DNA of 24,000 nucleotides from Candidatus Pacearchaeota archaeon (lineage in GTDB: Archaea; Nanobdellota; Nanobdellia; Pacearchaeales; GW2011-AR1). The DNA is taken from assembly GCA_038874355.1 (NCBI GenBank), contig JAVZCO010000001.1:84913-108912 (forward strand). The letters are read 5' to 3'. This document shows positions 4,178-24,000 of the stretch, piece by piece. The translations under genes and the position numbers were made by a program. Position 1 is the stretch's first letter, and each line of letters starts with the position of its first letter. The notes below the pieces were generated by a model. The model did not search any database and had not been told where the DNA came from. It saw only the letters and a program-made list of their open reading frames with translations.

Positions 4178-4208
4178 ATTTAATTAAATTATTTTTTTAA
4201 ATTTTTAT

Positions 4209-5270: not shown

Positions 5271-5273
5271 TTT

Positions 5274-6407: not shown

Positions 6408-6428
6408 TTTTTTAAATGGTTAGAAATA

Positions 6429-6436
6429 TTTATAAA
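6429..6436 (+). promoter_or_regulatory. TATA-like box (TTTATAAA)
   Basis: Lies 29 nt upstream of the ATG at 6458. This supports the shorter, leaderless start for the small membrane protein. Confidence 0.4.
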
Positions 6437-6457
6437 TTATGCTATTATAATACTTAT

Positions 6458-6658
6458 ATGAATAAATGGTTAGAATTATTGATAGGTTTAATACTTTTAG
6501 TAGGAGCAATTATTTTTGCTTTTAATTCTGCAAATTGGGGTGCTTTTTGGAATTTTAAACATGCTGCTTGGGAATTTTTTAAAGGTGGTTTAATTTGGTT
6601 TGTTATTTTAATAGGAGTATTATTCATTATTTTAGGAATATCTGATTTAAAAGAATAA
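6458..6658 (+). CDS. small two-TM membrane protein, unknown function
   Basis: 66 aa from the internal ATG (MNKWLELLIGLILLVGAIIF...), with two hydrophobic helices. The track start at 6416 has no promoter spacing and abuts the disA start (6407), which reads away on the opposite strand. Confidence 0.5.
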   Translation: MNKWLELLIGLILLVGAIIFAFNSANWGAFWNFKHAAWEFFKGGLIWFVILIGVLFIILGISDLKE

Positions 6659-6816
6659 AAAAGAAAGGGGGAAAAATTAAGCAAAAATAATTGCTTTTGA
6701 TAATTATTTCTATAAATTATTTTAAACTATTTTATTAATTAAATTTAAATATTTCTTAATACAAATTTCTTAATATAAATAGAAAAATATATTAATTTCT
6801 TCTTAGTTTTGAATTT

Positions 6817-8034
6817 ATGGAAGATAATTATTTATGTATCAAATGTAAAGGTAAAGGATTGTGTGGAAAAAAATGTCCTATATTAAATAAATTTAAAATT
6901 AAAAATTTAAAAAAAACTTATTTCTCAAGTTCTTTGCCTCCAGAAATTTTTGTTAGCACATACAATTATCCAAATGTAAATAGCGGAATTTTATCTCCAG
7001 AGGAATATGGAGATACTTCTTATTACTCTTCTTCTGAAATATGGTATAAAAATAATTATGATATAGAAAAAATTTTATTCTTGAGATCAAATTTAATTTA
7101 TTCAAAATTTAAAACAAAAATAAAATATGATCAAAAAAATAAATTTTTAGAAATAGCTAAAGAGATATCTTTAACAAATAAGCCTGTTTCTGCAGAAATC
7201 TTTCTTTTAAAACCAATAAAAAATAAAATTTTAATTAATAATTATTATCCCGTCATAGGAAATCCCGCTCCTCTAAAAAATATAAGATTAGGAGAAAATA
7301 TAAAAACAGAAAGGAAAGCAGAATATTTATTAAATGATATTGACGTAAAGGCAGAGGATGCTATAATAGAATTATATAAATCTAAATTAAAAATAGAGCA
7401 GATAATAAGACTTTTATCTGTTGGGAATTTAGGAAGGAAAAAAGAAAGAAAATTAGTTCCTACAAGATGGAGTATTACTGCTACAGATGATATTATCTCA
7501 AGAAAACTTTTAGAAAAAATAAAAACATATCAAGAAATTTCTGAAATTTTAGTTTTTAATTCCTACTACATAGGAAATCATTATGAATTTATATTAATTC
7601 CAGACAAATTCTCCTTTGAAGTTATAGAAGCAAAGCTAACTGGAAGTGTATGGAACCCTAACATGCCAACATATTTTGCAATAGACTATGAAGATTTTTA
7701 TGGAAGGAAAAAATATGCTAAAAATGTAACTGGAGCATATTATGCAAATAGATTAGCTTTATGTGAGTATTTAAAAAAAATAAAAAGACAAGCTGCTTGT
7801 TTAGTAATTAGAGAATGCAGAAAAGAGTATTATGCTCCTTGTGGTGTTGGTGTATTGAGAGAAGCAAGCAGAGGGGCTTTTTCTAAAGAAGCTGAAAGAT
7901 TCTCTAGCTTAAAAGATGCTTTTGAAGTCATACAAAAAAGATTAAAATTACCTATAAAAAATTTTATAGAAAAATCTTGGTTAATAAAAAAATATAAAGA
8001 ACAAAAAAAGATAACTTACTATTTATCTAACTAA
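6817..8034 (+). CDS. nreA: NreA-family DNA repair protein (Nre_N/Nre_C)
   Basis: 405 aa. Has the N-terminal Cys cluster CIKCKGKGLCGKKCPIL and the motifs LVPTRWSITATDD and YYAPCGVGVLREA, as I remember them for archaeal NreA. Confidence 0.7.
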   Translation: MEDNYLCIKCKGKGLCGKKCPILNKFKIKNLKKTYFSSSLPPEIFVSTYNYPNVNSGILSPEEYGDTSYYSSSEIWYKNNYDIEKILFLRSNLIYSKFKTKIKYDQKNKFLEIAKEISLTNKPVSAEIFLLKPIKNKILINNYYPVIGNPAPLKNIRLGENIKTERKAEYLLNDIDVKAEDAIIELYKSKLKIEQIIRLLSVGNLGRKKERKLVPTRWSITATDDIISRKLLEKIKTYQEISEILVFNSYYIGNHYEFILIPDKFSFEVIEAKLTGSVWNPNMPTYFAIDYEDFYGRKKYAKNVTGAYYANRLALCEYLKKIKRQAACLVIRECRKEYYAPCGVGVLREASRGAFSKEAERFSSLKDAFEVIQKRLKLPIKNFIEKSWLIKKYKEQKKITYYLSN

Positions 8035-8589
8035 AAAAATCAAAAGAGTTTCAATTAAAGCTGCTAAAAAGAGTAATGGTAAAATAACATAAATAAATAT
8101 TTCCAATATTAAGGAAAATTCTTTAAAAAATTTATCTTTAAAATTCTTTCCTTTTTTTAAAATAGAAATACCTAACTTTAAACCAAAAGCGAAAGATAAG
8201 AGAACCGCAAATAATTCAAATATACCATGTGGCAATAATTTCCATAGATTCATTACATCATTATTTTTTATTGAAAACTTTATTATATAACCTAATATAT
8301 AACCATTAATTAAAGTTAAAAATAATGGATAAATTCCAAAAAATAAACCAAAAATTAAACCAAAAAAAGCTGTTTTTAAATTATTTTGAAAAATAAAAAT
8401 AAAAATTTGAAAAAAATTCATTCCTTCTGTGATCTTTAATATTTCTTTAATAAGATTATTTATTTTTTCTTCTAAGGAAAAATAAAAAAAATATCCTAAT
8501 ATACTAGAAAAAAAATAAAGAATTAAAATAAAATAAATATAATTTCTATTTTTTTTTATATAATTAATATATTTTACATATTTATTCAT
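8023..8589 (-). CDS. SpoIIM-like (DUF95) integral membrane protein
   Basis: 188 aa, multi-TM, with LPHGIFELFAVLLSFAFGLKLG typical of the stage II sporulation protein M family. Its 3' end overlaps the nreA 3' end by 12 nt (convergent). Confidence 0.6.
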   Translation of the reverse strand: MNKYVKYINYIKKNRNYIYFILILYFFSSILGYFFYFSLEEKINNLIKEILKITEGMNFFQIFIFIFQNNLKTAFFGLIFGLFFGIYPLFLTLINGYILGYIIKFSIKNNDVMNLWKLLPHGIFELFAVLLSFAFGLKLGISILKKGKNFKDKFFKEFSLILEIFIYVILPLLFLAALIETLLIFLVR

Positions 8590-8591
8590 TT

Positions 8592-9227
8592 TTATCTAAA
8601 AATCTTTCTTAATAAATTTACTTTATTCCTATATTTTCTTTTTAAATAAAATCCATACAATAAACCTATAATAAGACCTCCTAAATGGGCAGTATTTGCA
8701 ATAGTTAAACCTAAACTAATAGAAACTGCCCATAGAGCCAAAAGCATAAAAAGCATTCCTAACCAAAGGGGCATTGGTAAAAAGAAAAATACATAAACTT
8801 TTATTTTCGGCAATAAAATCATTAATAAACCACCCAAAGCAAATAAAGCACCAGAAGCTCCAACAGCATAAGAATTAATGTCTTTATTGAATAAAAAACT
8901 AAACAAAACAAAAAATAAAGCTGCAAAAATTCCACTTAAAATGTAAAATCTAAAAAATCTTTTTCTACCAATAATTTTTTCAACAAAATTCCCAATAAAA
9001 AATAAAGAAATCATATTGGCAAATAAATGGAATGAATTAGCATGCATAAAAAAATGGGTTATGATTGTCCATAAGTATTTTCCTTTCAAAATAAATAATG
9101 GATTTAAAGCTAAATATTTTGTTAAATCTAATTGAACTATAAAAAAAATATTAAATATAAAGAAAAAAAGTATATTTATTATGATAATTAAATTTGTAAC
9201 ACTAATAAAAAAATATTTATTTCTCAT
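8592..9227 (-). CDS. rhomboid family intramembrane serine protease
   Basis: 211 aa. Motifs HANSFHLFANM, the catalytic GASGALFALGG and the catalytic His in AHLGGLIIG. Confidence 0.85.
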   Translation of the reverse strand: MRNKYFFISVTNLIIIINILFFFIFNIFFIVQLDLTKYLALNPLFILKGKYLWTIITHFFMHANSFHLFANMISLFFIGNFVEKIIGRKRFFRFYILSGIFAALFFVLFSFLFNKDINSYAVGASGALFALGGLLMILLPKIKVYVFFFLPMPLWLGMLFMLLALWAVSISLGLTIANTAHLGGLIIGLLYGFYLKRKYRNKVNLLRKIFR

Positions 9228-9862
9228 TTTTTCTTTTTAAAAGATTTTTTTATAATCTTTTTCTTATTTTTTAATCTATCTTTTCTCTTTTTTTCTTTTA
9301 ATATAGCCTCTCTTCTTTTTTTATTTTTTTCCTCTTTTAAAGACAAATCTTTTATTTCTTCCTCTACATTTTTTATTTGTTTTTCTTTCTTTTCTATAAG
9401 AGACTTTAATTCATTTATCAAAAAAGAATTATCTTTTAATTCATAAATGTTTCCACATTCTGGACAGGTAAAATTATTAAATAAAGCATTTTCTTCTGAT
9501 ATATCTATTACGCAAGTTTTACAGAAATAAAATCTTTTTGTTTCTCTACTCTTTAGTTTATTTATTAATTCATTTTTTTCTTTTTCTAATTCTTTCTTTA
9601 AAAATTCTAAACATCTTTTTTTATCTAATGTCCAATAATATGTATACCATCCTTTCTTATTATCTTTTTTCCTTGTAAAAGATACTATTCTATGATTAGA
9701 AAGATTATATAGTATATTTCTAACTTGATTTATTGTAAGATTTAATTTTTTTGTTATTAAAAATTCATTAACATTTTTTTTATTTTCTAAAATTTTAAGT
9801 ATATTTACAGCTTGTTTACCAATAACTCTTTCTATAGCATTTTCTAATAATTTTTGTTGCAT
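9224..9862 (-). CDS. tfe: transcription factor E (TFE-alpha / TFIIE-alpha homolog)
   Basis: 212 aa. N-terminal winged helix (VRNILYNLSNHRIVSFTRKKDNKKGWYTYYWTLD) and zinc ribbon (FCKTC...CPECG), followed by a Lys-rich tail. It overlaps the rhomboid start by 4 nt. Confidence 0.8.
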   Translation of the reverse strand: MQQKLLENAIERVIGKQAVNILKILENKKNVNEFLITKKLNLTINQVRNILYNLSNHRIVSFTRKKDNKKGWYTYYWTLDKKRCLEFLKKELEKEKNELINKLKSRETKRFYFCKTCVIDISEENALFNNFTCPECGNIYELKDNSFLINELKSLIEKKEKQIKNVEEEIKDLSLKEEKNKKRREAILKEKKRKDRLKNKKKIIKKSFKKKK

Positions 9863-9975
9863 CTTCTATTTTAATAATTTTTATTTTCTATAGTTCTTAT
9901 TTTAATAGGCTATTAAAGATTATATATCTTTTGTTTTTAAAAGATAGTAACTACTTTATAGTTTATGCAAAAATA

Positions 9976-9983
9976 TTTATATA
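9976..9983 (+). promoter_or_regulatory. TATA-like box (TTTATATA)
   Basis: Lies 27 nt upstream of the ATG at 10003. This supports that start over the TTG at 9931 used by the ORF track. Confidence 0.45.
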
Positions 9984-10002
9984 TAGAAAGAGAATTTTTT
10001 TT

Positions 10003-10674
10003 ATGGCTTTATTTAAAAGGAAAAGAGAAGAAAAAAATATAGAACTTCCAGAATTACCTAATTTACCAGAATTTCCGCCAATTTCTTCGATAAGTCAAAA
10101 TAAAGACTTAAATTTTTATGAAAAAGATTTTGAAAAAAGAGATAGAGATTTAGAATTGTCCCCGCTTCCTTCTTTTAAGGAAAATGATAAATTAAAAGAA
10201 GAAGTAACAAAAACTATAATTAAAGAGGATATAAATGATACAAATAAAAAATTTATAAAAGAGGATATAGAAGAAGAAAATCTAGAAAAATCTTTTTATA
10301 ACTATGATAAAGAAGAAAAAGAAGAATTAGAGGTAATAAAACCGCAAATAAAAGCTCCTTTGATAAAAGAAATTGACAAAAAATTTGAAAAAGATTTTGA
10401 AAAAGAAGATTTAAAAGAAATTAAAATAAATAACAAAACATCGAATGAAAAAAAAGGTCCTTTATTTATTAGAATTGATAAATATAAAAATGCTATAGAA
10501 AAAATACAAGATGTAAAACAGCAATTAATGGAAATAGAAAAAATGTTAAGAGATATAAAAGAATTGAAAGAAAAAGAAGAATTTGAAATAATTGAGTGGG
10601 AAAAAGAAATACAATCTGCAAAATCAAAAATAGATAGTATTGACAAACTTCTTTTTTCAGAATTAGAAGAATAG
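10003..10674 (+). CDS. acidic coiled-coil protein, unknown function
   Basis: 223 aa from MALFKRKREEKN. Has a Pro-rich LPELPNLPEFPP stretch, a Glu/Lys-rich low-complexity middle, and a C-terminal helical domain (GPLFIRIDKYKNAIEKIQDVKQQLMEIEKML...). Confidence 0.55.
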   Translation: MALFKRKREEKNIELPELPNLPEFPPISSISQNKDLNFYEKDFEKRDRDLELSPLPSFKENDKLKEEVTKTIIKEDINDTNKKFIKEDIEEENLEKSFYNYDKEEKEELEVIKPQIKAPLIKEIDKKFEKDFEKEDLKEIKINNKTSNEKKGPLFIRIDKYKNAIEKIQDVKQQLMEIEKMLRDIKELKEKEEFEIIEWEKEIQSAKSKIDSIDKLLFSELEE

Positions 10675-10688
10675 TGCTTTAAATAAAA

Positions 10689-11048
10689 ATGGAAAAAAAA
10701 ATATATCTAAAAAAAGATTTTTATGAAGTAATTAAATCGAAAAAGGATTTATTAGGTATAGAATTAAGTTTAATTAAAATTTTACAAATTATAAAAAGGT
10801 ATTCTTTCTTAAGAAAAAAAGAAATTTTATTAAAGATACAAATTAAAGAAAAATTAAAAAATATACATTCTGAAATAAATTACATTTTTTTAAATTATTT
10901 ACCAAAAATAGAAGAAAAAAGTGAAGATATTAAAAAAAATAAAAAAACTTTATTATTAAAAGATAAAAAAGAAATAAAAAATAAGGATGTTTTAGAATTA
11001 GAGTTGAGAGAAATACAAAGAAAATTAAAAGAATTAGAAAATTTTTAA
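10689..11048 (+). CDS. small coiled-coil protein, unknown function
   Basis: 119-aa ORF starting 14 nt after the previous gene. Predicted helical; its pattern loosely resembles the C-terminal domain of the upstream protein. Confidence 0.45.
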   Translation: MEKKIYLKKDFYEVIKSKKDLLGIELSLIKILQIIKRYSFLRKKEILLKIQIKEKLKNIHSEINYIFLNYLPKIEEKSEDIKKNKKTLLLKDKKEIKNKDVLELELREIQRKLKELENF

Positions 11049-11143
11049 AATAATGAAGTAAAAAGAATCTTTAATATCTTTTTAAAAATAAATAAAGAAA
11101 AATTTTTAAGTAAGAGTAATCTAGAAAATTAATAAATATGAGA

Positions 11144-11542
11144 TTATTCTTTTTTATGATAATTCACAATTTTTTTTATTTTTAATGCTATTTCTTTAGA
11201 TTTTAAAAAAACATCTTCTGAAGAAAAGCCATATATTTTCCATCCAAATGATTTTATTGTAGAATATTTCTTTTTAAGAGTATTATTCTTTTCCTTTATA
11301 CTTTCTCCTATTATCTCAATTACAATTTTTTCTTTTGGAAAAGCAAAATCAACTTGATAATTTCCAATAGAATACATAATCTTAGGAAAGATTCCTATAT
11401 TATTCAATTCTTTAAGTAACTCCTTTTTCGCCTTTATATTTATATCTTCAACTTCTTTAATTTCCTCTTTTGGTATTTCAAAATATTCTTCCTTTTTTTT
11501 AAATTTATTCTTAAAAAATTTTATTAAACCCATATTTATCAA
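11144..11542 (-). CDS. DUF559/Vsr-like PD-(D/E)xK endonuclease-fold protein
   Basis: 132 aa. The C-terminal YQVDFAFPKEKIVIEIIGES...GWKIYGFSSEDV matches the DUF559 pattern (D-F ... E-x-x-G ... G-W-x-v-x-R-F). Confidence 0.45.
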   Translation of the reverse strand: MINMGLIKFFKNKFKKKEEYFEIPKEEIKEVEDINIKAKKELLKELNNIGIFPKIMYSIGNYQVDFAFPKEKIVIEIIGESIKEKNNTLKKKYSTIKSFGWKIYGFSSEDVFLKSKEIALKIKKIVNYHKKE

Positions 11543-11601
11543 AAGATTTTACTCTTTTTAAACTTTTGTTATATCTTTACATTTTTAAATAAACAGTAAA
11601 A

Positions 11602-11609
11602 TTTATATA
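11602..11609 (+). promoter_or_regulatory. TATA-like box (TTTATATA)
   Basis: Lies 30 nt upstream of the ATG at 11632. Confidence 0.45.
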
Positions 11610-11631
11610 GAACGAATGTTTATTAAAAGGA

Positions 11632-11889
11632 ATGGAAAAAGACATGAAAGAAATAGGTAAAGTTACTCATTTCTTTGACAAAATAAGTGTTGCTGTTGTT
11701 GAACTTACAGATTCCTTGGAAGTAGGAGATAAAATAAAGATAAAAGGAACTACAACTGATTTTGAACAAGAAGTAAAGGAAATGCAAATTGAACATCAAA
11801 AAATTGAAAAAGCAAAGGCAGGTGACTTAATTGGATTGAAGGTTGAAGAAAAAGTAAGAGTTAATGATAAAGTTTATCTTTTAGGATGA
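11632..11889 (+). CDS. EF-Tu domain 2-like small beta-barrel protein (translation elongation factor-like)
   Basis: 85 aa. IGKVTHFFDKISVAVVEL...LEVGDKIKIKG...AKAGDLIGLKV...VYLL resembles a stand-alone GTP_EFTU_D2 barrel. Confidence 0.55.
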   Translation: MEKDMKEIGKVTHFFDKISVAVVELTDSLEVGDKIKIKGTTTDFEQEVKEMQIEHQKIEKAKAGDLIGLKVEEKVRVNDKVYLLG

Positions 11890-11979
11890 GTATTTTATAA
11901 TAAAATCTATGTAAGGGAAATAAAGGATGTATAAATAGAAGAAAAAGTTAAAAATAATCTTATAAAAATTTATAAAAGA

Positions 11980-12219
11980 TTATTTTGCTTCTTGAATTAA
12001 TTTAATTCCTGTTATTAAAGCCCAAATCCACATAGATATAATTAAAGGAATTCCTATTAGAATAAAACTTAAAGGAATTCCTATCAAAAATAAAATTAAT
12101 TGTATAATTCCTTCATCTGTTTTTCCTCCGATTAAACTTCCTAGACCTGGAAGAATTAAAATATTAATTAACAAAGATACAATTGCAATATCTCTACTTA
12201 TTTTTTCTTTTTTAGCCAT
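11980..12219 (-). CDS. small membrane protein (TM2-like PGLG motif)
   Basis: 79 aa with two or three hydrophobic helices and LPGLGSLIGGKTDEG. Confidence 0.45.
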   Translation of the reverse strand: MAKKEKISRDIAIVSLLINILILPGLGSLIGGKTDEGIIQLILFLIGIPLSFILIGIPLIISMWIWALITGIKLIQEAK

Positions 12220-12263
12220 CTATACTAAGTATTTAATTTGATTTATAAATTTTCTTTTTTAGA

Positions 12264-13964
12264 TCATTCTAAAATTGCTTTTATCCTTCTAATTCCAGAA
12301 GCAACTGCTTCTTCTTTTACTATTTTAAATTTACCTAATTCTTTTGTATTTTTTACATGTGGGCCAGAGCATATTTCTTTAGAAAAATCTCCTATAAAAT
12401 AAACAGAAACTTTATCTTTGTATTTATTTTCAAATACTCCTTCTGCTCCAATAGACTTTGCCTCTTCTAAAGACATTTCTTTTTTTACCACTTCTAATTT
12501 TTCTTTTATTTTTTGATTCACAAGATCTTCAATTTTTTTTAATTCCTCATTTGTTAATTTTCTCTGAAAATTAAAATCAAATCTTAACCTTTCTGCTGTA
12601 ATATTACTTCCTTTTTGATGTATGTTATTATCTTTTAATATTATCTTCAATGCCCGATTAAGCAAATGAGTTGCTGTGTGTAATTTAGTTACTTGTTCAC
12701 TATTATCTGCTAACCCAGATTTAAAAACCCCGGCAGATGCTGTTCTGCTCAACTCTTGGTGTTTTTTAAGTTCTTTTTTGAAACCGTCTACATCTAATTT
12801 AATTTTTTTCTCTTTTGCTAATTCTTCTATCATCTCTAGAGGAAAACCATAACTTTGGTATAATAAAAAAGCATCTTTCCCTTCTAAAATTCTTTTATTT
12901 TTTATTATTTTTTCAAATAATTTTTCTCCTAAACTTAAAGTTTTTAAGAATTTCTTTTCTTCTTCTTCTAAAACTTTTATTATATGTTCTTTTTTTTCTT
13001 TTAAGTTTTTGTAATCATCATAAATATCAAAAACGCTTAAAGCAATTTCTTTTATAGAAAAATTTATTTCTAATTTTTTTAAATATCTTATTGCTCTTCT
13101 TATTAGTCTTCTTAATACATATCCTCTTTCTATATTACTCGGAATAACACCATCTGAAATTATAAAAACACTAGCTTTAATATGATCTGCTATAATTCTC
13201 ATCTCTCGTTTATTTTTTTCATAAGATTTTTTAGTTATTTCTTCTATTTTTTTTATTATTGGAAGAAAACAATCTGTAAGAAACATATCTTTATTGTTGA
13301 GTATAGCTAAAGTTCTTTCAACACCCATACCAGTATCAACATTTTTCTGTTTTAATTCACTATAACTTCCATCAGGATTTTTATTATATTGCATAAAAAC
13401 ATCATTCCATATTTCATATCCATTCACAAACATTTCTGTATCAGGACCACACGGCCCTGTATTTCCAGCAGGACCCCACCAATTATGATTTCTATCTAAA
13501 AATTTTATTTTATTTATTCCTAAACTTTTCCATATTTCACTAGATTCTATATCTTTTTCTGCAACTTCATCTCCAGCAAAACAACTTACTTCAATTCTCT
13601 CTATAGGAATTTTTAATATTTTAGTTAAAAATTCAAAGCTCATTTCTATTGCTTCTTTTTTGAAATAATCTCCCAAACTCCAATTTCCCAACATTTCAAA
13701 AAAAGTTAAATGAAAATCATCTCCAACTTCTTCTATATCGTTAGTTCTAATACATCTTTGTACATTGACTAATCTTTTTCCTTGTGGGTGTTTTTCTCCT
13801 AATAAAAATGGTACAAGAGGATGCATTCCAGCTGTAGTAAATAAAACAGTTGGATCATTTTCTGGCACAAGAGAAGCATTTGGAATCTCTTTATGTCCTC
13901 TAGATTTAAAAAAATCTATATATGCTTTAATTAATTTTTTTCTTGTCCATTCCTCTTTTTCCAT
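12264..13964 (-). CDS. alaS: alanyl-tRNA synthetase, short bacterial-type form
   Basis: 566 aa. Motifs NDPTVLFTTAGM, FFEMLGNWSLGDYF, DTGMGVERT, RIIADHIKA and YVLRRLIRRA. The editing-site motifs HTATHLL and CSGPHV are present, and the protein ends at GIRRIKAILE. Confidence 0.9.
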   Translation of the reverse strand: MEKEEWTRKKLIKAYIDFFKSRGHKEIPNASLVPENDPTVLFTTAGMHPLVPFLLGEKHPQGKRLVNVQRCIRTNDIEEVGDDFHLTFFEMLGNWSLGDYFKKEAIEMSFEFLTKILKIPIERIEVSCFAGDEVAEKDIESSEIWKSLGINKIKFLDRNHNWWGPAGNTGPCGPDTEMFVNGYEIWNDVFMQYNKNPDGSYSELKQKNVDTGMGVERTLAILNNKDMFLTDCFLPIIKKIEEITKKSYEKNKREMRIIADHIKASVFIISDGVIPSNIERGYVLRRLIRRAIRYLKKLEINFSIKEIALSVFDIYDDYKNLKEKKEHIIKVLEEEEKKFLKTLSLGEKLFEKIIKNKRILEGKDAFLLYQSYGFPLEMIEELAKEKKIKLDVDGFKKELKKHQELSRTASAGVFKSGLADNSEQVTKLHTATHLLNRALKIILKDNNIHQKGSNITAERLRFDFNFQRKLTNEELKKIEDLVNQKIKEKLEVVKKEMSLEEAKSIGAEGVFENKYKDKVSVYFIGDFSKEICSGPHVKNTKELGKFKIVKEEAVASGIRRIKAILE

Positions 13965-16631: not shown

Positions 16632-17434
16632 TCAAGGGCGCTTTCTTAAATTTAGTCTAAATAATTTATTTGCATTTTTCCAAAAAACCCTTTCCCTATT
16701 TTCATTTGAAATTTTTAAAGAATTAATCAATTTAATATGTTCTTTAATATCACACATTGCATAATCCGTACCAAATAAAACACTTTCAGGATTGTCTTTA
16801 ATTGATTGCTCTAAAACTTTTTTTATTTTATCTAAACCTGTTTCTTTTATAACTTCCTCATCTGCAAGAGCAGAAGTATCAAAATAGATGTTTTTGAAAC
16901 CTCTTGTTATTCTATAACAATATTCTACTTCTGGCCAATAATAATGAGATATTATAATTCGTAATTTAGGAAATTTCTTTACAATTTTTATAATATGTTT
17001 TGGATTGTTGTATTTTGCAACTTCTGGATGATTTGAATTCCATCCAGTGTGGATAACTACAGGGCAGTTATGTTTTACACAAAGTCTGTAAATCGGCATT
17101 AATCTTTTATCCGTTGGATAAATTGGATCATGTCCTGGAAAAATCTTTATTCCTTTGATTTTTTTTCTTGAAGTAACGAACCCAATTTAGTTATCCATTC
17201 TTTTTCCTCTGTTCTAATATCTATGGTCCCTAATAAAAAAAGTTTTTTCTCATTTTTTATTAATTCTAAACAAACATCCAAATCCCCAATCCTTGAATCA
17301 TGAAGATTATCTGGAATTAGAATTGCATAATCAATTTTATTTTTCTTCAAATCAGAAAGAAGTTTTTTCTTAGATTGCTCAAAGGTAGAATTTTTTTTAA
17401 CAACGGGAAGATGGAGATGTGCATCAATTATCAT
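16632..17434 (-). pseudogene. Amidohydro_2-type metal-dependent hydrolase interrupted by a frameshift in an A8 tract
   Basis: Two adjacent ORFs, 17434-17147 (MIIDAHLHL...) and 17099-16632 (...VVIHTG...ISH...FGTDYA). The downstream frame stays open upstream to 17186 and reads KKIKGIKIFPGHDPIYPTDKRLMPIY. The frames switch in the coding-strand A8 run (plus-strand T8, 17159-17166), and one extra A would fuse them. Confidence 0.75.
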
Positions 17435-18285: not shown

Positions 18286-18343
18286 AAGTTGGAATTATTT
18301 AATAATATTATGAACTTACCTGAAAAAGAAACAAGAGAACAAT
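18269..18343 (+). repeat. hsdR promoter/5' end copy, partner of the inverted repeat at 17665-17740
   Basis: See the partner entry. Contains the TTAAAAGTT box (18282-18290) 28 nt upstream of the hsdR ATG at 18310. Confidence 0.75.
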
Positions 18344-21039
18344 ACATAGACCCTCTTTTGAGAAAGGAAGGCTGGAGAGATGAATACATAAAAAAAGAAG
18401 TTAACTCTCTTAAATCAAACTTTAAAAAAAAGATTTATTCTTTAAAAACAATAGATGGGAAAGAGGAAGGAAGGTTTATTGATTATCTTCTTTTAGATGA
18501 ACATGGCTCACCTATTGCAATAATTGAAGCAAAAAGATTCTCACTAGATCCTGAAAAAGGAAGAATTCAAGCTGATACCTATCAAAGAGATATTGAAAAA
18601 CAAATAGGTTACATTCTTCCCGCTTTTCTTACTAATGGGAAAAAATGGTATTTTAAGGAAAAAAATTATCCTCTGAGAGAAATTTCCGGTCCTTTTTCGC
18701 AAGAAGATTTACAAAGAAGACTTAATCTCTCAAAAAATAAGAGTGATCTCACAAAAATAGAAATAAATACAAATATTGTTGATAGGTCAAAAAGCATTCA
18801 AATTGTAAAACAAATTTTAAATCACTTTAATATAAGTAACAGAAGCGCCTTAATAACAATGGCTACTGGAACAGGGAAAACAAGAGTAGCAATGGCGATA
18901 ATTCATGCTTTAGTTAAGGCCAGATGGATACAAAATGTTTTATTTGTTGTTGATAGAATTTCGCTTGGTAGGCAGGCATTTTATGATGGATTCCAGAAAT
19001 TTTTTTCTTCAACTCCTTCTTGTTTATTAAATGAGCAAGAGTTTACGAAGGATAAAAGATTTTATGTTTCAACTGTTCAGACCCTTATGGCTAAACAAAA
19101 CGATGGAGAAAGACTATTTCAAAAGTTTAGTCCTGGTTTTTTTGATTTAGTAATTTTCGATGAAGCGCATCGTTCTTATTATGACAAACAAAATCTTGTC
19201 ATGAAATATTTTGATGCTTTAAAAATTGGTTTAACTGCTACCCCTTCTAAAACTGAGGACAAAAATACTTATGATTTATTTGAATGTGAAAGAGGAAAAC
19301 CTACTGCAGAATATACTTATGATGAAGCTGTTCGTGATGGCGTTCTTGTTCCTTATGATGCTCAGATTATTGAAACTAAAGTATTAAAATTAGGAATAAG
19401 AGGGATGGAGCTTGATAAAGAACTTAAAACAGAATTAATGAAACAGGACGAGGATCCAGATCATTTTGAGGTTCCTGGAAAAAAATTTGCTAGATACTTT
19501 ACAGATAAAAAAACTAATGAACTAATTATTAGAGAGTTTATGAATCGCTGTCATAAAACAGAAGACGGAAAGCCTTGTAAATCTATCTTTTTTTGCGTGA
19601 ATGTAGATCATGCCAAAGCAATAAAAAAGTGTTTTGATAAACTTTACCCAAATCTATGTAACGAAACCGAAGTTATTGTTTCTGAATACGATAGATATAT
19701 GGATGCTGTTGAAAGGTTTATGAAAGAATCATCTCCTAGGGTGGCTATTTCTGTTGGGGTTCTTGATACGGGAATCGATATTCCAGAAGTTTGTAATCTC
19801 GTTTTTGTCACTCCTGTTTTCTCTCCTATTAGGTTTTGGCAGATGGTCGGAAGAGGTACAAGAAGTTTATCTGCTTGCAAGCATAAAGAATGGCTTCCAA
19901 ATTATGATGGAGTTCATGATAAAAAAGATTTTAGAATTCTTGATTTTAAATTTGGAGATTTTTCTAATGTTTTAGAGCATCAGTTAGAAGTGAGTAAGGA
20001 AAAAAAACTAAGTGAAGACATAAGAGAAAAAATTCTTAAAAAAGAATTAGATCTCCTGAAAAAAAATCTTAATCCAAGAGAAAAAGAAATAATCGAGAGC
20101 CATATTATTGAAAGAATTGGAAAAATAGATACAAAGTCCTTTATTGTTAGAGATAAAATTCCAATAATAAAGAAAATAGTTTCAAAACAATATGACTTAC
20201 AAAAGCACATAGAAGAGATAAAAAGAGAAATCGCTCCTTTATTAAAGTTTTCTGAATTTGGAGATGGAAAAGTACAAACATTTATTTCTAATTGTATCGA
20301 TTTATTTAAATATATTAAAGAAAGCGACATTGAAAGCATCTCTAAAGTTCAAGAGTTTGTTACAGAAAGAGTTATTAATGTATGGGAATCTGATTTAGAA
20401 GCAGTAAAGAAAAAAGACGAACAAATTAAACGAGTTTTACAAGAAAAGTTTTGGCAAGAGCTAACGTTTGAGGATGTTGATTTTCTTATTAGAGAGATCG
20501 CTCCTTTAATGATTTACTATGAAAAAGAAAAGAAGAGGATTATAAGAGTAGATGCCCCCGATCTTGTTTTGGAGGTTGAGAATTTCAAAATGCAAATTAA
20601 AGAGGACAAAAGATTTGAGGAGTTTAAAAAAAGCGCTCTTGTTCAAAAGATGATTAAAGAAGGAGTTACATGGAAAGAATTATATCAAATATCACAAGAG
20701 CTTGCAAAACTAAATCCTTCTTGGACAATTGAGAACATTCAAAAAAGCCGGGATTTTGTTCTTTTTTTGAGAGATATTCTTGAATTAAAAGATTTATCTA
20801 ATCCAGAAGATATGATAAAACAACAATTTGAAGAGCTCATTATTAAAAACAACAAAGAATATAATGCAGAACAAATTAGTTTTTTAAGAATGCTTTCTAG
20901 TTTCTTTGCAATTAACAAACATCTTGATAAAAAAGATTTTGTTGAATTTCCTCTTGCAGAAGAAAGACCTCTAGAGAAGTTTAGCAGAGAACAGCTTGAT
21001 AGCATAATCAGAAAGGTAGAAGAGATTAGGATTAGATAA
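18310..21039 (+). CDS. hsdR: type I restriction enzyme R subunit (HsdR), EcoEI-like C-terminus
   Basis: 909 aa from the ATG at 18310. N-terminal HSDR_N nuclease (ETREQYIDPLL...GW...IDYLLLD...IIEAK). SF2 helicase motifs MATGTGKT, FDEAHRS, GLTATP, VGVLDTGIDIP and QMVGRGTR. The C-terminal region resembles EcoEI_R_C (YNAEQISFLRML...). Confidence 0.9.
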   Translation: MNLPEKETREQYIDPLLRKEGWRDEYIKKEVNSLKSNFKKKIYSLKTIDGKEEGRFIDYLLLDEHGSPIAIIEAKRFSLDPEKGRIQADTYQRDIEKQIGYILPAFLTNGKKWYFKEKNYPLREISGPFSQEDLQRRLNLSKNKSDLTKIEINTNIVDRSKSIQIVKQILNHFNISNRSALITMATGTGKTRVAMAIIHALVKARWIQNVLFVVDRISLGRQAFYDGFQKFFSSTPSCLLNEQEFTKDKRFYVSTVQTLMAKQNDGERLFQKFSPGFFDLVIFDEAHRSYYDKQNLVMKYFDALKIGLTATPSKTEDKNTYDLFECERGKPTAEYTYDEAVRDGVLVPYDAQIIETKVLKLGIRGMELDKELKTELMKQDEDPDHFEVPGKKFARYFTDKKTNELIIREFMNRCHKTEDGKPCKSIFFCVNVDHAKAIKKCFDKLYPNLCNETEVIVSEYDRYMDAVERFMKESSPRVAISVGVLDTGIDIPEVCNLVFVTPVFSPIRFWQMVGRGTRSLSACKHKEWLPNYDGVHDKKDFRILDFKFGDFSNVLEHQLEVSKEKKLSEDIREKILKKELDLLKKNLNPREKEIIESHIIERIGKIDTKSFIVRDKIPIIKKIVSKQYDLQKHIEEIKREIAPLLKFSEFGDGKVQTFISNCIDLFKYIKESDIESISKVQEFVTERVINVWESDLEAVKKKDEQIKRVLQEKFWQELTFEDVDFLIREIAPLMIYYEKEKKRIIRVDAPDLVLEVENFKMQIKEDKRFEEFKKSALVQKMIKEGVTWKELYQISQELAKLNPSWTIENIQKSRDFVLFLRDILELKDLSNPEDMIKQQFEELIIKNNKEYNAEQISFLRMLSSFFAINKHLDKKDFVEFPLAEERPLEKFSREQLDSIIRKVEEIRIR

Positions 21040-21040
21040 A

Positions 21041-21352
21041 ATGGATTTAGAAAAATTAAAGAACAAACTAAAAAATTACAAAGAAGAAGACATAATATTA
21101 ACTAAACACGCTGAATTTCAGGCCTTTGTTAGAAATGTTTCTTTAAAAGATATTAAAGAAAACATATTAAATCCTTCTAGGTTAGTTTATGCTAGGCAGC
21201 AAGAATCGAAAAAAGAAAATGAAGAAAAATATGATTGTTATTTTGCTTATTCAAAACATTTTTATCACCGTTATGTACTAACTCTAAATAGAAAGATTAT
21301 TATAGTAACAGTTATTAAAATAAATAGGGATTGGCAGAAGGCGATAGGATAA
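21041..21352 (+). CDS. DUF4258-like putative toxin
   Basis: 103 aa. IILTKHAEFQAFVRNVSLKDIKENILNP...IIIVTVIKI fits the DUF4258 pattern (x-T-x-HA...R-x-I-s...I). The gene starts 2 nt after the hsdR stop. Confidence 0.6.
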   Translation: MDLEKLKNKLKNYKEEDIILTKHAEFQAFVRNVSLKDIKENILNPSRLVYARQQESKKENEEKYDCYFAYSKHFYHRYVLTLNRKIIIVTVIKINRDWQKAIG

Positions 21353-21354
21353 AA

Positions 21355-21696
21355 ATGGAAAAATTTAATTTTAATTATGATGAAGAGAATGACGACTTAT
21401 TTGTTTATTTAGAGGGGAAAAAATCTTCGGGTGCGATTGAATTAGGAAATTTTGTTTTTGATTTTGATGAAGAAGGCAATTTAGTGGCTATGCAAATATT
21501 AAATGTCACAGAAGTTTTTTCTAAAATTCTTTCAAAAATAAAAGAAGTTTCAAAAATAAAAGATATAAGAATTGAAATTTTTAATTTTAAGAATATGGAA
21601 GCTATTAAATTTAGCGTTTCAGATAACAGAATAGAGGAAACAGCAAATATTTTGATTCCCTTTATAAAAGAAAAAAGCCCTGTTTTGGAATATTAA
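21355..21696 (+). CDS. DUF2283-like putative antitoxin with C-terminal extension
   Basis: 113 aa from the ATG at 21355 (AGGA lies 5 nt upstream). NYDEENDDLFVYLEGKK...FDFDEEGNLVAMQILN fits DUF2283. The ATG is 3 nt after the DUF4258 stop. Confidence 0.6.
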   Translation: MEKFNFNYDEENDDLFVYLEGKKSSGAIELGNFVFDFDEEGNLVAMQILNVTEVFSKILSKIKEVSKIKDIRIEIFNFKNMEAIKFSVSDNRIEETANILIPFIKEKSPVLEY

Positions 21697-21700
21697 TATA

Positions 21701-21745
21701 GGGATTACAAAGGAATCCCAAAGTTTAAAAATCTGGTCTTTTTTT
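21701..21745 (+). terminator. hairpin GGGATT-N7-AATCCC followed by a T7 run (terminator and/or operator)
   Basis: A perfect 6-bp inverted repeat pairs 21701-21706 with 21714-21719, and a T7 run lies at 21739-21745. The element sits between the hsdR-TA unit and the next cassette and overlaps the cassette promoter. Confidence 0.35.
21724..21731 (+). promoter_or_regulatory. TATA-like box (TTTAAAAA) for the RHH cassette
   Basis: Lies 29 nt upstream of the ATG at 21753, the same spacing as other promoters in the window. Confidence 0.4.
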
Positions 21746-21752
21746 AGTTTTT

Positions 21753-22133
21753 ATGGTTAATGGCAAAACCTACAATAGACCCCGAACAGTTAAGCTAGAT
21801 AAAACAGAAGATTTACAACTACAAGATTATTGTGATAAGTTAGGAGTAGATGTTTCCACATTTATTAGAGAAGCAATTAATGAAAAAATTAATTCAGGCA
21901 ATATTTCAAACATCGCTGGCCAGAATATAATTGATTTTGATAGTAAAGAAGATAAATTTATCTGGAAAATTAAGCTTGATAATGGAGAAGAAAAAACAAT
22001 TTTAGAGGATCTTTCTCCGGAGTTCATGGAAGATTTGTTCAACAAAATTCATCTAAAACTAAAAGAAAGAGACGATTTACTCCAAAGAAAAAATAAAAAA
22101 AGCGTTCCTGTGCCAAGGAGGTTAGTGAGATGA
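21753..22133 (+). CDS. ribbon-helix-helix (CopG/Arc-like) DNA-binding protein with uncharacterised C-terminal domain
   Basis: 126 aa. RTVKLDKTEDLQLQDYCDKLGVDVSTFIREAINEKI reads as a strand-helix-helix RHH pattern. Its stop overlaps the next start (ATGA at 22130-22133). Confidence 0.6.
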   Translation: MVNGKTYNRPRTVKLDKTEDLQLQDYCDKLGVDVSTFIREAINEKINSGNISNIAGQNIIDFDSKEDKFIWKIKLDNGEEKTILEDLSPEFMEDLFNKIHLKLKERDDLLQRKNKKSVPVPRRLVR

Positions 22134-22789
22134 AGAAATATATAAGTAAAAGTTATATTCAATCTATATTTAACAGAAAAATAATTAAAGAAGAAAATTT
22201 TAAAATATGGTCAGAAAAAAACTTTTTGGAAAAGTATTCTAAAGATCATGGTTTAAATCCTAAAGAAATAAATACAAAAATATTAATTTATGAAGATAGG
22301 GTCAAAGGATGGTTTTTAGATATAGCGACTGAACTAAAATCTTTAAGAGATAGTGGTTTTGTTATTCTTCAGATTGTTTTAAGTTACGTTGAAGGGATTC
22401 AACAGTATATTAACGGGAAAATAAGTAAGGGAAAATCTAAAGAATTTTTTAAAGAAGGTTTAATAAGAATATATCCTGAATTAGAAAAAAAAGAAAAAAT
22501 TGACGAAATTCTCAATAATTTTTATAAAGAGGTTAGATGCGGCCTCTTTCATACAGGAATGGTCGGTAAATCCGTAAAAATTAGTGGCGATTATCTAAGG
22601 GCTTTAAATATAAATGAAAGACTTATTGAGATTAACCCCCATTTATTTTTGGAGGATATTAAAAAAGATTTTGAAAATTATATAAAAAAATTGAAAGATG
22701 AAAGTAATGAAGAAGATAGAAAAAAATTTGAAAAAATATTTGATGAGCTAAATATAACAAATGAAGAAAATGACAACACAAAAAACTAG
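22130..22789 (+). CDS. uncharacterised 219-aa protein with Rx4H motif, putative HEPN-like RNase
   Basis: A strong SD (AAGGAGGT, 22115-22122) lies 8 nt upstream. The helical-looking sequence carries FYKEVRCGLFHTG (R136...H141, nt 22535-22552), which resembles the HEPN R-x4-6-H signature. I recognise no other family. Confidence 0.4.
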   Translation: MKKYISKSYIQSIFNRKIIKEENFKIWSEKNFLEKYSKDHGLNPKEINTKILIYEDRVKGWFLDIATELKSLRDSGFVILQIVLSYVEGIQQYINGKISKGKSKEFFKEGLIRIYPELEKKEKIDEILNNFYKEVRCGLFHTGMVGKSVKISGDYLRALNINERLIEINPHLFLEDIKKDFENYIKKLKDESNEEDRKKFEKIFDELNITNEENDNTKN

Positions 22790-23381
22790 AACAAATGTAG
22801 TAGAGGTTTTTGAAGAATTAAAAGAAAAAGGACTAATAAGAAAAGAAAGAAAGTTAAAAGAAAGTAAATTTTTTTCAAATTTTAAAAATTTAGGAAATAC
22901 TATTTTTTTTAATCCTTCTTTTAAAAATCTTAACAAAAATTATTTAAGATTGATCCTCCTTCATGAAGAAGCGCATGCTACAAAGAAACAAAGATCAAAA
23001 TATGTAATTATTTCATCCCTCATCTTATCTTTTTTTTCTTTTTGCATTTTTAACATCTGGCTTTTTAAAATGAAGTTTATTTATTCTTTTATACTTTCTT
23101 TAGTTATCCTTTTTTCAGTATTTAGACTTTCTTTTAATTACTTAAAAAAAGATGAATTTGAAGCTGATTTATTTGCTTGTTCTCGATTAAAAGAGCATTA
23201 TAAGATAAAAAACGTTTCAAAGTTATTAGAAAATTCATTAAAATCGATACATATTAAAAAAAAGAAAAATTATTCTTTATTTATTAAATTATATAAGATT
23301 ATAAATTATCATCCCACTATGAAAGAAAGGGTTAATAGAATTAAAACAATTTTAGAACAAAATGACAACACAAAAAACTAA
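22761..23381 (+). CDS. minimal membrane-anchored M48/HtpX-like zinc metalloprotease
   Basis: 206 aa, or 203 aa from the ATG at 22770 inside the repeat. Order of elements: HEEAH (nt 22962-22976), two TM helices (aa ~81-125), DEFEADLFA (a third-ligand Glu motif as in M48), and near the C-terminus HPTMKERVNRI (as in the HtpX HPplseRi). Confidence 0.65.
   Translation: MKKMTTQKTRTNVVEVFEELKEKGLIRKERKLKESKFFSNFKNLGNTIFFNPSFKNLNKNYLRLILLHEEAHATKKQRSKYVIISSLILSFFSFCIFNIWLFKMKFIYSFILSLVILFSVFRLSFNYLKKDEFEADLFACSRLKEHYKIKNVSKLLENSLKSIHIKKKKNYSLFIKLYKIINYHPTMKERVNRIKTILEQNDNTKN
22767..22788 (+). repeat. direct repeat copy 1 (AAAATGACAACACAAAAAACTA)
   Basis: 22/22 identical to 23359-23380, or 25/26 if extended to 22763/23355. 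It covers the ...NDNTKN C-terminus of the upstream gene and the MTTQKT start of the downstream gene. Confidence 0.95.
23359..23380 (+). repeat. direct repeat copy 2 (AAAATGACAACACAAAAAACTA)
   Basis: Identical to 22767-22788. It contains the hsdS start codon (23362) and the end of the M48-like gene. Confidence 0.95.
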
Positions 23382-24000
23382 ACTTCCAGAAGGCTGGCAA
23401 GAGGTTGAGCTTGGGGATTCAGAATTTTTTGAAATTTTATCTAGCGGTATAGAAAAATTTGAAGGAGAAAAAGATTATTTATCAACAGAATCAATTCAAG
23501 CTACTAAAATAGAAAAAATTGAAGCTAAGATAACTTTTAAAAATAGACCTTCTAGGGCAAATATGCAACCGGTTCTTAATTCTGTTTGGTTTGCTAAAAT
23601 GCAAGCGACATTAAAAGTTTATGTTTTTGATGAAAATAATAAAGATGAAATAAAAAAATATATCTTGTCTACTGGTTTTGCAGGAATAAGATGTAAAGAA
23701 AACAAAGTTTATCCTAAATATTTAAAATATTTTTTTATTACAAATGAATTTAATAAAATTAAAGATTCATTATGCTCTGGAGCAACGCAGAAAGGGATTA
23801 GAAATGAAGAAATAGCTAAAATAAAAATCCCTCTCCCGCCCATCGAAACCCAGAAAAAAATCGTCGCTATTTTAGAAAAAGCTGAAAAGCTGAAAGAAAA
23901 ACGAGAGCAGGCCATAAAATTGGCTGATGAATATTTAAAGAGCGTTTTTGCGGAGATGTTTTTGAAAGAAAAGGATAAGTTTGAGGAGGTTGAGCTGGAG
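23362..24000 (+). CDS. hsdS: type I restriction enzyme specificity subunit (HsdS), 5' partial
   Basis: An open frame, absent from the track, that runs off the window end. It reads MTTQKTKLPEGWQEVELGD...RANMQPV...SVWFAKM...GATQKGIRNEEIAKIKIPLPPIETQKKIVAILEKAEKLKEKR...VFAEMF. This is target recognition domain 1 plus the central conserved helix. Confidence 0.9.
   Translation, partial: MTTQKTKLPEGWQEVELGDSEFFEILSSGIEKFEGEKDYLSTESIQATKIEKIEAKITFKNRPSRANMQPVLNSVWFAKMQATLKVYVFDENNKDEIKKYILSTGFAGIRCKENKVYPKYLKYFFITNEFNKIKDSLCSGATQKGIRNEEIAKIKIPLPPIETQKKIVAILEKAEKLKEKREQAIKLADEYLKSVFAEMFLKEKDKFEEVELE

Follow-up and report, generated by a model that had tools for sequence, protein, structure and literature searches.

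A type I restriction-modification operon of a Pacearchaeota archaeon with a candidate ribbon-helix-helix regulator and replaceable cargo genes

Genes nested within type I restriction-modification (R-M) operons are frequent and often defensive, a relationship described as "guilt-by-embedding" (bioRxiv 10.1101/2024.01.29.577857). In the RptR-RMS-DarTG-M48 island of E. coli, such an operon encodes a small autorepressor with palindromic sites in the operon promoter and carries its cargo at a proposed recombination hotspot (PMC12255303). The locus described here lies within a 24,000-nucleotide (nt) stretch of the genome of a Candidatus Pacearchaeota archaeon (contig JAVZCO010000001.1, positions 84,913 to 108,912), referred to as the window, to which all coordinates below refer except where a related locus (L-number) is named; P-numbers denote related proteins. 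Three genes on the plus strand, g1 (21753–22133, 126 residues), g2 (22130–22789, 219 residues) and g3 (22770–23381, 203 residues, or 206 residues from a less likely start at 22761), are located there between the type I genes hsdR and hsdS. The original prediction, made from the sequence of the window, described them as a tripartite module of toxin, antitoxin-repressor and protease, and the open reading frames (ORFs), motifs, overlaps, GGAGG and TATA-like box that it listed are all found at the places it gave. Comparison of homologous loci points elsewhere, in that the locus is probably a type I R-M operon in which g1 is a regulator belonging to the conserved backbone, with g2 and g3 as independently gained cargo.

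Operon backbone, variable slots and cargo

In DPANN-type (tiny, low-GC) archaea, hsdR is followed by g1 in 13 loci of one type I operon family (the window, L076, L077, L079, L080, L082, L083, L084, L086, L087/L088, L089 and L023, with L003 weakly so), and the overall order is hsdR, an optional DUF4258/DUF2283 pair, g1, zero to three variable genes, hsdS, zero to two variable genes, and hsdM. The hsdR gene upstream of g1 is EcoAI-like in every locus with enough flanking sequence, and precedes g1 either directly or after a DUF2283-type insert. The genes between g1 and hsdS are g2 and the M48-like gene g3 in the window, genes for a 72-residue membrane protein and an M48 protein in L076, and a single gene for a 327-residue protein in L077. 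At the same position are found genes for proteins of 66, 69 and 162 residues in L079, of 162, 290 and 321 residues in L080, of ∼100 and 227 residues in L082 and L084, of 143 and 85 residues in L083, and of 272 and 230 residues in L089. In L023, g1 is followed by hsdM, a SLFN/AlbA_2 gene, a gene for a 67-residue protein, g2 and hsdS, and in L087/L088 g1 leads directly into hsdS, giving the bare form hsdR-g1-hsdS-hsdM. The cargo proteins of the related loci carry no Pfam annotation.

The nearest relative of the window locus is L077, with a DNA identity of 92% over hsdR, 88% over the promoter and g1, 95% over the first 58 nt of hsdS, 86% over the C-terminal half of hsdS and 95% over hsdM. Two stretches of the window, 21042–21691 (the DUF4258/DUF2283 pair) and 22155–23357 (g2 and g3), have no counterpart in L077, where the single unrelated 327-residue gene replaces g2 and g3. 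Because the flanks are 86–95% identical and yet an unrelated gene stands in their place, g2 and g3 are replaceable cargo, and comparison of the loci identifies them as two unrelated genes, apparently acquired independently of each other.

The assignment of the operon to type I follows from its flanking genes. The hsdR gene (18289–21039, plus strand) encodes an EcoAI-like restriction subunit of 916 residues from a TTG start (909 residues as called in other assemblies), with matches to ResIII (1e-35), HSDR_N and EcoEI_R_C in Pfam and to REase_I in PADLOC (E 5.8e-92). The 5′ part of hsdS (23362–24000, plus strand), which extends past the end of the window, matches Methylase_S in Pfam (6.8e-14) and Specificity_I in PADLOC (5e-29), and both genes are also supported by NCBIfam. 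In L002, a second assembly of the window locus, hsdS (387 residues) is followed beyond the window by the gene for a 117-residue membrane protein (tm117) and then by hsdM. With hsdR and hsdS in the window and hsdM downstream as seen in L002, the nesting of the three genes in a type I R-M operon, as originally described, is confirmed. The two assemblies represent near-identical strains (46 differences in 2934 positions), and 16 of the 46 differences sit in 100 nt (23019–23117) encoding the transmembrane helices of g3, a cluster that could reflect a recombination patch or relaxed constraint. There are no differences over the 660 nt of g2 (100% identity) and many in hsdS.

A second variable slot, between hsdS and hsdM, usually holds a gene whose small product (96–377 residues) is a membrane or coiled-coil protein, different in each locus. 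Its occupants include the gene at 3456–3809 of L002 and its equivalents in L076, L077, L079 and L080, and the slot of L076 also contains an NYN-domain gene. RNxxxH motifs (RNKISH, RNKVIH, RNKGAH and RNNVAH) were observed in other cargo or neighbour proteins without a Pfam match, encoded at 7378–8361 of L077, 8716–9681 of L080, 10024–10920 of L003 and 4952–5791 of L004. In the proposed organization, a backbone of hsdR, g1, hsdS and hsdM would offer two or three slots, with differing passengers in every genome. The first transcription unit would comprise hsdR, here together with the DUF4258/DUF2283 pair, and a second promoter, at the TATA-like box (21723–21732), would give g1-g2-g3-hsdS-tm117-hsdM as one overlapping, translationally coupled message.

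The product of g3 (22770–23381) is a minimal membrane M48-like zinc metalloprotease, in agreement with the initial assignment. It matches Pfam Peptidase_M48 (PF01435) with 36.1 bits against a cutoff of 20.3, and has the HExxH motif and downstream Glu of that family in HEEAH (22962–22976) and EFEAD (23154–23168), together with HPTMKER (23310–23330), so that its set of catalytic motifs is complete. A hydropathy scan places two hydrophobic segments, at residues 79–102 and 99–128, between the zinc ligands. The protein fails the NCBIfam HtpX equivalog model (12.9 bits against 245), to which only its C-terminal half aligns, and has no transmembrane pair before HExxH; nor is it a DUF45/YgjP (COG1451) protein, Peptidase_M48 being its sole Pfam peptidase match at E ≤ 1. 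A single homologue was detectable, P0210 (58% identity, 38.5 bits to PF01435), encoded at the same position in the syntenic L076, with the gene for the 72-residue membrane protein in the place of g2.

Both ends of g3 overlap the adjoining genes, by 20 or 29 nt between g2 and g3 and by 20 nt between g3 and hsdS, as a result of a 26-nt direct repeat, GAA[G/C]AAAATGACAACACAAAAAACTA, that the original prediction had overlooked. Copy 1, GAAGAAAATGACAACACAAAAAACTA (22763–22788), covers the start of g3 and the end of g2, and copy 2, GAACAAAATGACAACACAAAAAACTA (23355–23380), covers the end of g3 and the start of hsdS; the copies differ at one base, and a repeat of the 22-nt core is expected zero times by chance. 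In L077 the 327-residue gene ends in QNDNTKN-stop and overlaps the hsdS start ATGACAACACAAAAAACTA, and the window genes g2 and g3 end alike, in NDNTKN-stop. The 22-nt sequence starts hsdS in L077, which identifies it as the native beginning of hsdS in the clade. The M48 gene begins with the same 17–22 nt (MTTQKT) in the window and in L076, despite the protein identity of 58%; the corresponding sites in the relatives are 8001–8017 of L076 and ∼8338–8360 of L077. The 22-nt repeat was also considered as the end of a mobile element, which was rejected because it forms the native beginning of hsdS in L077 and that of the M48 gene in L076, with no further occurrence among 76 loci. The simplest reading of these sequences is that the body of the M48 gene inserted at codon 6–7 of hsdS. 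The insertion would have taken over for g3 both the start codon and the first six codons of hsdS, with the 26-nt duplication restoring the start of hsdS, and the duplication around g3 may be regarded as the footprint of a gene slotting into a stop/start junction, with the downstream gene left unbroken.

Gene 1 and its promoter

The g1 protein consists of a predicted N-terminal ribbon-helix-helix (RHH) domain (residues ∼10–48) followed by a conserved C-terminal domain of three strands plus a helix, and its homologues form a small family of ∼125-residue proteins. The RHH call made for g1 in the original prediction is upheld at the level of this family, where DUF6290 is matched by 14 of 19 members and RHH_1 by seven of 19 (best E 2.8e-7). 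A g1 profile searched against the Protein Data Bank (PDB) retrieved RHH proteins only (AvtR, SIRV 56B and CopG), at marginal E-values of 0.04–0.4. RHH-type families alone were matched by g1, with no match to helix-turn-helix C proteins or to RptR.

The 3′ end of g1, CAAGGAGGTTAGTGAGATGA (22114–22133), contains both the GGAGG and the ATGA stop/start overlap with the next gene and encodes the conserved C terminus VPRRLV, with GGAGG lying inside the VPRRLV codons. The two elements are found together at the g1 junction in most loci, and the ATGA overlap is present at 12 of the 15 junctions listed, irrespective of the next gene, hsdS included. That next gene is g2 in the window locus only; at the 12 further loci whose sequence extends downstream, its place is taken by a different gene, hsdM or hsdS. 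As the junction is kept whatever follows, it is a feature of the operon backbone and no toxin-antitoxin signature; the coupling of g1 to g2 by ATGA and GGAGG was correctly described, but the antitoxin-toxin meaning attached to it does not hold, given that the same overlap stands before unrelated genes.

The TATA-like box GTTTAAAAAT (21723–21732, plus strand) lies ∼21–30 nt upstream of the g1 ATG, which would leave a short leader or none, and is the putative promoter of this unit. A TTTA[T/A]AAA sequence occupies the same position in 13 related g1 loci, and so the TATA-like box that the original prediction placed ahead of the cassette is real and conserved in position. It is abutted by the inverted repeat GGGATTAC-AAA-GGAATCCC (21701–21719), a candidate operator for g1. 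In 12 of 14 loci the distance from the end of the inverted repeat to the g1 ATG is 28–36 nt, with the repeat directly ahead of the TATA box, so that a predicted palindromic site with lineage-specific half-sites is fixed in position in the promoter of g1 itself. The arms vary by lineage and stay palindromic (GGATTAC/GTAATCC, GTATTAC/GTAATAC, GTAAAC/GTTTAC, GGTTAAC/GCTAACC and TGTTTACAAAT/ATTTGTAAACA), and changes in the arms accompany changes in the N-terminal strand of g1 that is predicted to read the DNA (RTVK or ITVK versus AATK, MATK or ISVK). A terminator hairpin is a less likely identity for the inverted repeat, which is conserved in sequence within lineages and keeps a fixed distance to the TATA box.

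These features suggest that g1 is the autoregulator of the second unit, g1-cargo-hsdS-x-hsdM, acting at the TATA box and transcription factor B recognition element (BRE) region, and they support the repressor-like role first proposed for it. An RHH dimer of g1 would bind the repeat at 21701–21719, a prediction drawn from the fold family, the position and the covariation of the operator. Binding would autoregulate the specificity/methylase unit together with the cargo riding on it, in analogy to R-M controller proteins and RptR.

Several results weigh against this view of the operon. Taken by itself, the g1 protein of the window is below threshold in Pfam (DUF6290 E 6e-4, RHH_1 E 0.026). Its AlphaFold2 (AF2) monomer model is poor (pLDDT 68, pTM 0.35), with helices at 17–30 and 34–47 and a disordered strand region, and a Foldseek search with this poor model returned no RHH match, the top matches being XRCC4 and coiled coils. 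Among random 65-nt windows drawn from these AT-rich loci, 24% hold an inverted repeat that scores comparably, and for that reason the case for the operator rests on its fixed position and covariation across about 13 loci. As for the cargo, g3 is linked to R-M genes in two of two loci, a number at which the linkage is anecdotal.

Gene 2 and competing explanations

The g2 family is large: a word search gave 69 matches, and an exhaustive profile search retrieved 2436 clusters (formed at 50% identity) with E ≤ 1e-3. It ranges over DPANN-type archaea, Bacteroidota, Cyanobacteria, Deltaproteobacteria and Firmicutes. The protein of the window has no match in Pfam, NCBIfam, PADLOC (2.0.0) or PHROG. 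Its AF2 model is confident (pLDDT 85, pTM 0.80) and shows a soluble, α-helical protein with helices at 47–69 and 76–95, an insert at 103–120, a helix at 124–142, a loop/β-meander and a helix at 170–189. The motif RCGLFH (R136 to H141; 22535–22552, plus strand) forms the C-terminal end of helix 124–142, and both its Arg and its His are invariant across 36 diverse family sequences, in keeping with an Rx4-6H motif. Within helix 76–95, E88 (22391–22393, plus strand) is likewise invariant. By the published definition of HEPN domains, the motif ends helix 3 at the start of a loop, an acidic residue is located in helix 2, and an insert may stand between helices 2 and 3 (PMC3710099). The order of helices in the g2 model fits this definition under a provisional assignment of helices 1–4. 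On this basis it is possible, rather than probable, that g2 is a HEPN-like RNase effector.

A number of observations count against that identity. In at least 90% of g2-family sequences the Arg is followed by Cys137, as opposed to the usual Asn, Asp or His of HEPN proteins. A Foldseek search of the PDB with the g2 model gave nothing usable (best E 2.1), a g2 profile run against PDB sequences came back empty, and none of the 36 family members matches a HEPN family of Pfam. Comparisons of the g2 profile by hhalign with the proteins L077_327, L080_321, L003_298 and L004_279 gave probabilities of <3%, and a hidden Markov model built from 197 g2 sequences reached L080_321 at an E-value of 2 only, in collinear pieces, which was not counted as evidence. 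Most g2 homologues also adjoin ordinary genes, so a role in defence is not certain. The HEPN-like character originally proposed for g2 is thus compatible with its Rx4H motif and helix order, but finds no fold or profile match. Among viral structures, Foldseek returned a single unnamed 170-residue protein (E 0.037), which was not usable. L080_321 and g2 share the collinear pattern FFLHDA...AIESIMG...LYDIFRNKVIHEG, which is not significant.

The genomic context of g2 was surveyed in 65 non-redundant loci, with hsd genes sought within 8 kb. The gene is solitary in ∼58 of the 65, and no neighbour recurs, with at most four members in any neighbour cluster; an M48 neighbour occurs in the window locus only, and no RHH neighbour was found at the other 64 loci. 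Genes of the hsd type lie within 8 kb in ∼6 of 65 (the window locus, L003/L015, L023, L042, L058, and L045 with an hsdM-like gene only), which is, by an estimate from the rarity of type I systems per genome, well above chance. Also encoded near g2 are OLD nucleases, SLFN/AlbA_2, GmrSD, MmeI/Eco57I-type methylases and a TOTE protein, among housekeeping genes. Two fusions were found, each in one protein: an in-frame fusion of g2 to HsdS (P0188) and a fusion of g2 to a C-terminal HEPN_AbiU2 domain (P0104, E 3e-9). A phage origin of g2 was rejected, as it is found in none of 50,697 phage genomes and in two IMG/VR contigs only. In three Bacteroidota loci (L025, L039 and L054, from Algoriphagus, Belliella and Cognataquiflexum, at ∼3400–13350) the g2 homologue is flanked on one side by a SLFN/AlbA_2-type gene and on the other by the gene for an Eco57I/MmeI-type methylase protein of ∼1600 residues, with a helicase-like gene upstream; this recurring context may represent a distinct defence system.

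With moderate to low confidence, g2 would be a stand-alone effector that needs no dedicated partner. The positions of E88 and R136-x4-H141, which correspond to those of a HEPN active site, would most likely make it a metal-independent RNase acting in immunity or abortive infection, and the fusion to HsdS suggests that it may dock on the R-M complex. Embedding of g2 in the operon flags a large unannotated family as candidate immune effectors, with E88, R136 and H141 as candidate catalytic residues.

Alternatively, g2 could be a PrrC-like guardian of the R-M system, held inactive on HsdS/HsdM and freed as a nuclease upon viral inhibition of the restriction enzyme, with the solitary homologues being degenerate or differently wired. 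PrrC, the classic case of a HEPN effector nested in a type I operon, provides a precedent (PMC12707154), and the Rx4H/Glu layout of g2 is HEPN-like. In L023, g2 lies directly upstream of hsdS and overlaps it, and the window g2 probably did likewise before the M48 insertion, as indicated by the shared overlap that ends in NDNTKN-stop; the P0188 fusion points the same way. However, P0188 stands alone as a metagenomic protein truncated at its N terminus, and may have arisen by loss of the stop codon that separated two overlapping genes. Moreover, hsd genes are absent from the 8 kb around about 90% of the g2 homologues sampled, so function without a partner must be the norm, and the 219-residue protein lacks the ABC-type ATPase domain that defines PrrC and RloC, as well as any sensor domain of that type, and has no Pfam match or PADLOC match, PrrC included. 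A guardian role is, on balance, unlikely.

It is also improbable that g2 and g3 are non-immune, whether as selfish or neutral passengers or as housekeeping-type genes trapped in a recombination-prone slot, g3 as a small HtpX-like quality-control protease and g2 as a non-enzymatic helical protein. M48/HtpX proteases are normally quality-control enzymes, although g3 matches HtpX with 12.9 bits only. Many of the genes carried in the slots are ORFans for small membrane proteins that show no sign of a role in defence, housekeeping genes often neighbour g2, and the concentration of strain differences in the transmembrane region of g3 is consistent with relaxed constraint there. On the other hand, the invariant polar residues of g2 and its complete identity between strains, while the flanks vary, indicate purifying selection, and the HsdS and HEPN_AbiU2 fusions and the enrichment near R-M genes point to conflict biology. 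In addition, the genes found inside type I R-M systems are mostly of neither mobile-element nor housekeeping type (bioRxiv 10.1101/2024.01.29.577857).

The tripartite module of the original prediction, in which g1 would be an RHH antitoxin/repressor, g2 a HEPN-like toxin and g3 an antitoxin-cleaving membrane protease in one backup to the R-M system, accords with the adjacency, common direction and overlap of the three genes behind a single TATA-like box, with the frequency of RHH antitoxins and HEPN toxins (PMC3710099), and with the presence in one operon of g1 and g2 (the window, L023 and, weakly, L003) and of g1 and g3 (the window and L076), but it is highly improbable and already largely refuted by the gene neighbourhoods: in L023, a stretch of 3 kb that holds hsdM and the SLFN/AlbA_2 gene separates g1 from g2, which adjoin in the window alone; the ATGA coupling of g1 is kept in loci lacking both g2 and M48, the cargo-free L087 among them; g2 is mostly solitary; the M48 gene occurs in L076 without g2; and L077 keeps g1 at 88% identity while an unrelated gene replaces g2 and g3. 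The three genes show no conserved linkage to one another, and the adjacency and co-inheritance of g1 and g2 characteristic of type II toxin-antitoxin pairs were not found among homologous loci. What stands of the predicted linkage is that of each gene to R-M, which is strict for g1, seen in both loci for g3, and limited for g2 to ∼6 of 65 loci plus the HsdS fusion. A tempting but wrong model is thereby removed, leaving the operon with a backbone regulator and independently gained cargo as the preferred reading. A further-reaching form of that reading, in which the g2 family would be an unrecognized HEPN-like RNase effector, acting solo or as an HsdS-docked, ATPase-less counterpart of PrrC, and in which DPANN-type type I operons would at the same time be dedicated cargo platforms, in which an RHH controller, co-evolving with its operator, drives the expression of any immune gene that recombines into the slot between the controller gene and hsdS, is unlikely when both parts are taken together.

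Surrounding genes and comparison with described systems

Between hsdR and the g1 promoter, the window carries the optional DUF4258/DUF2283 pair (21041–21696, plus strand), with DUF4258 at 21041–21352 (Pfam E 1e-4) and DUF2283 from 21331 or 21355 to 21696 (Pfam E 2.6e-8). The original prediction was right that the cassette separates hsdR from hsdS, but it overlooked this putative toxin-antitoxin-like pair, which is tight behind hsdR and ahead of the promoter of g1. The pair is missing from L077, and its DUF4258 part is degraded in L076 to ORFs of 32 and 29 residues. The position looks like a second, independent insertion slot. No Rfam match was found in the locus. The window as a whole has a GC content of ∼24% and carries archaeal housekeeping genes, and its g2 protein is identical to one from a Candidatus Pacearchaeota metagenome-assembled genome; its sole RNA gene, by ARAGORN and Rfam, is a tRNA-Arg (TCG) at 2590–2663 on the minus strand. 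At 16632–17434 (minus strand), two consecutive ORFs of 95 and 155 residues, 47 nt apart, resemble the N- and C-terminal parts of an amidohydrolase-type protein (MIIDAHLHLP... and ...VIHTGW...) and may be a split gene or a pseudogene.

By analogy, the closest precedent for the locus is the RptR-RMS-DarTG-M48 island. Both encode a small DNA-binding autoregulator (a predicted role in the case of g1) within a type I operon, and both carry unrelated cargo between hsd genes, which in the island is DarTG2, with other gene pairs in its place in other genomes. A gene annotated as an M48 metallopeptidase is also part of the island. RptR is a 9-kDa bacterial protein described as having a recognition helix, with RHH never mentioned (PMC12255303), whereas g1 is archaeal, belongs to the RHH type and carries an additional C-terminal domain. 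The RptR gene comes first, upstream of hsdM, and g1 stands between hsdR and hsdS; the RptR operators are TAGCTA repeats, and the candidate for g1 is a single inverted repeat with arms of 6–11 bp at the TATA box. The M48 gene of the E. coli island follows hsdR and is likened to g3 by its annotation; g3 is membrane-anchored and has no DUF45/YgjP match.

Other embedded type I genes, such as PrrC in EcoprrI and RloC, resemble the cargo described here in being nested between hsd genes, in often being RNases, HEPN proteins (HEC-08) among them, and in frequently having solitary homologues. They differ in that neither g2 nor g3 corresponds to a PADLOC 2.0.0 model, g2 has no ABC-ATPase, the host is a DPANN-type archaeon, and a conserved RHH gene and overlapping stop/start junctions define the slots. 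With the HEPN superfamily, g2 shares an invariant R-x4-H at a helix end followed by a loop, a Glu in the preceding long helix and a helical insert, as well as R-M and abortive-infection contexts and the one HEPN_AbiU2 fusion. It departs from that superfamily in the Cys after the Arg, in the β-meander before the next helix and in the missing profile and Foldseek matches, and the likeness is one of helix order.

The C proteins of type II systems are also small, dimeric DNA-binding proteins encoded inside an R-M operon with a palindrome in their own promoter, as predicted for g1. They are, however, bacterial helix-turn-helix proteins whose genes precede that of the type II endonuclease, whereas g1 is an RHH protein that heads a type I specificity/methylase unit and would act on an archaeal TATA/BRE promoter. 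Among M48 proteases (HtpX, Ste24 and BepA), g3 has the HExxH motif, the ExxAD-type Glu, HPxxxER and transmembrane helices between the zinc ligands, but is only ∼200 residues long, lacks a transmembrane pair before HExxH, fails the HtpX model and is found in two R-M operons only. Taken together, the locus differs from its precedents in being archaeal, in placing an RHH regulator between hsdR and hsdS, in carrying cargo from uncatalogued families and in its clean junctions. If this architecture holds, it would represent an archaeal (DPANN-type) counterpart of the bacterial type I islands that combine a regulator with embedded cargo, built on a different DNA-binding fold and with an operator that can be tested.

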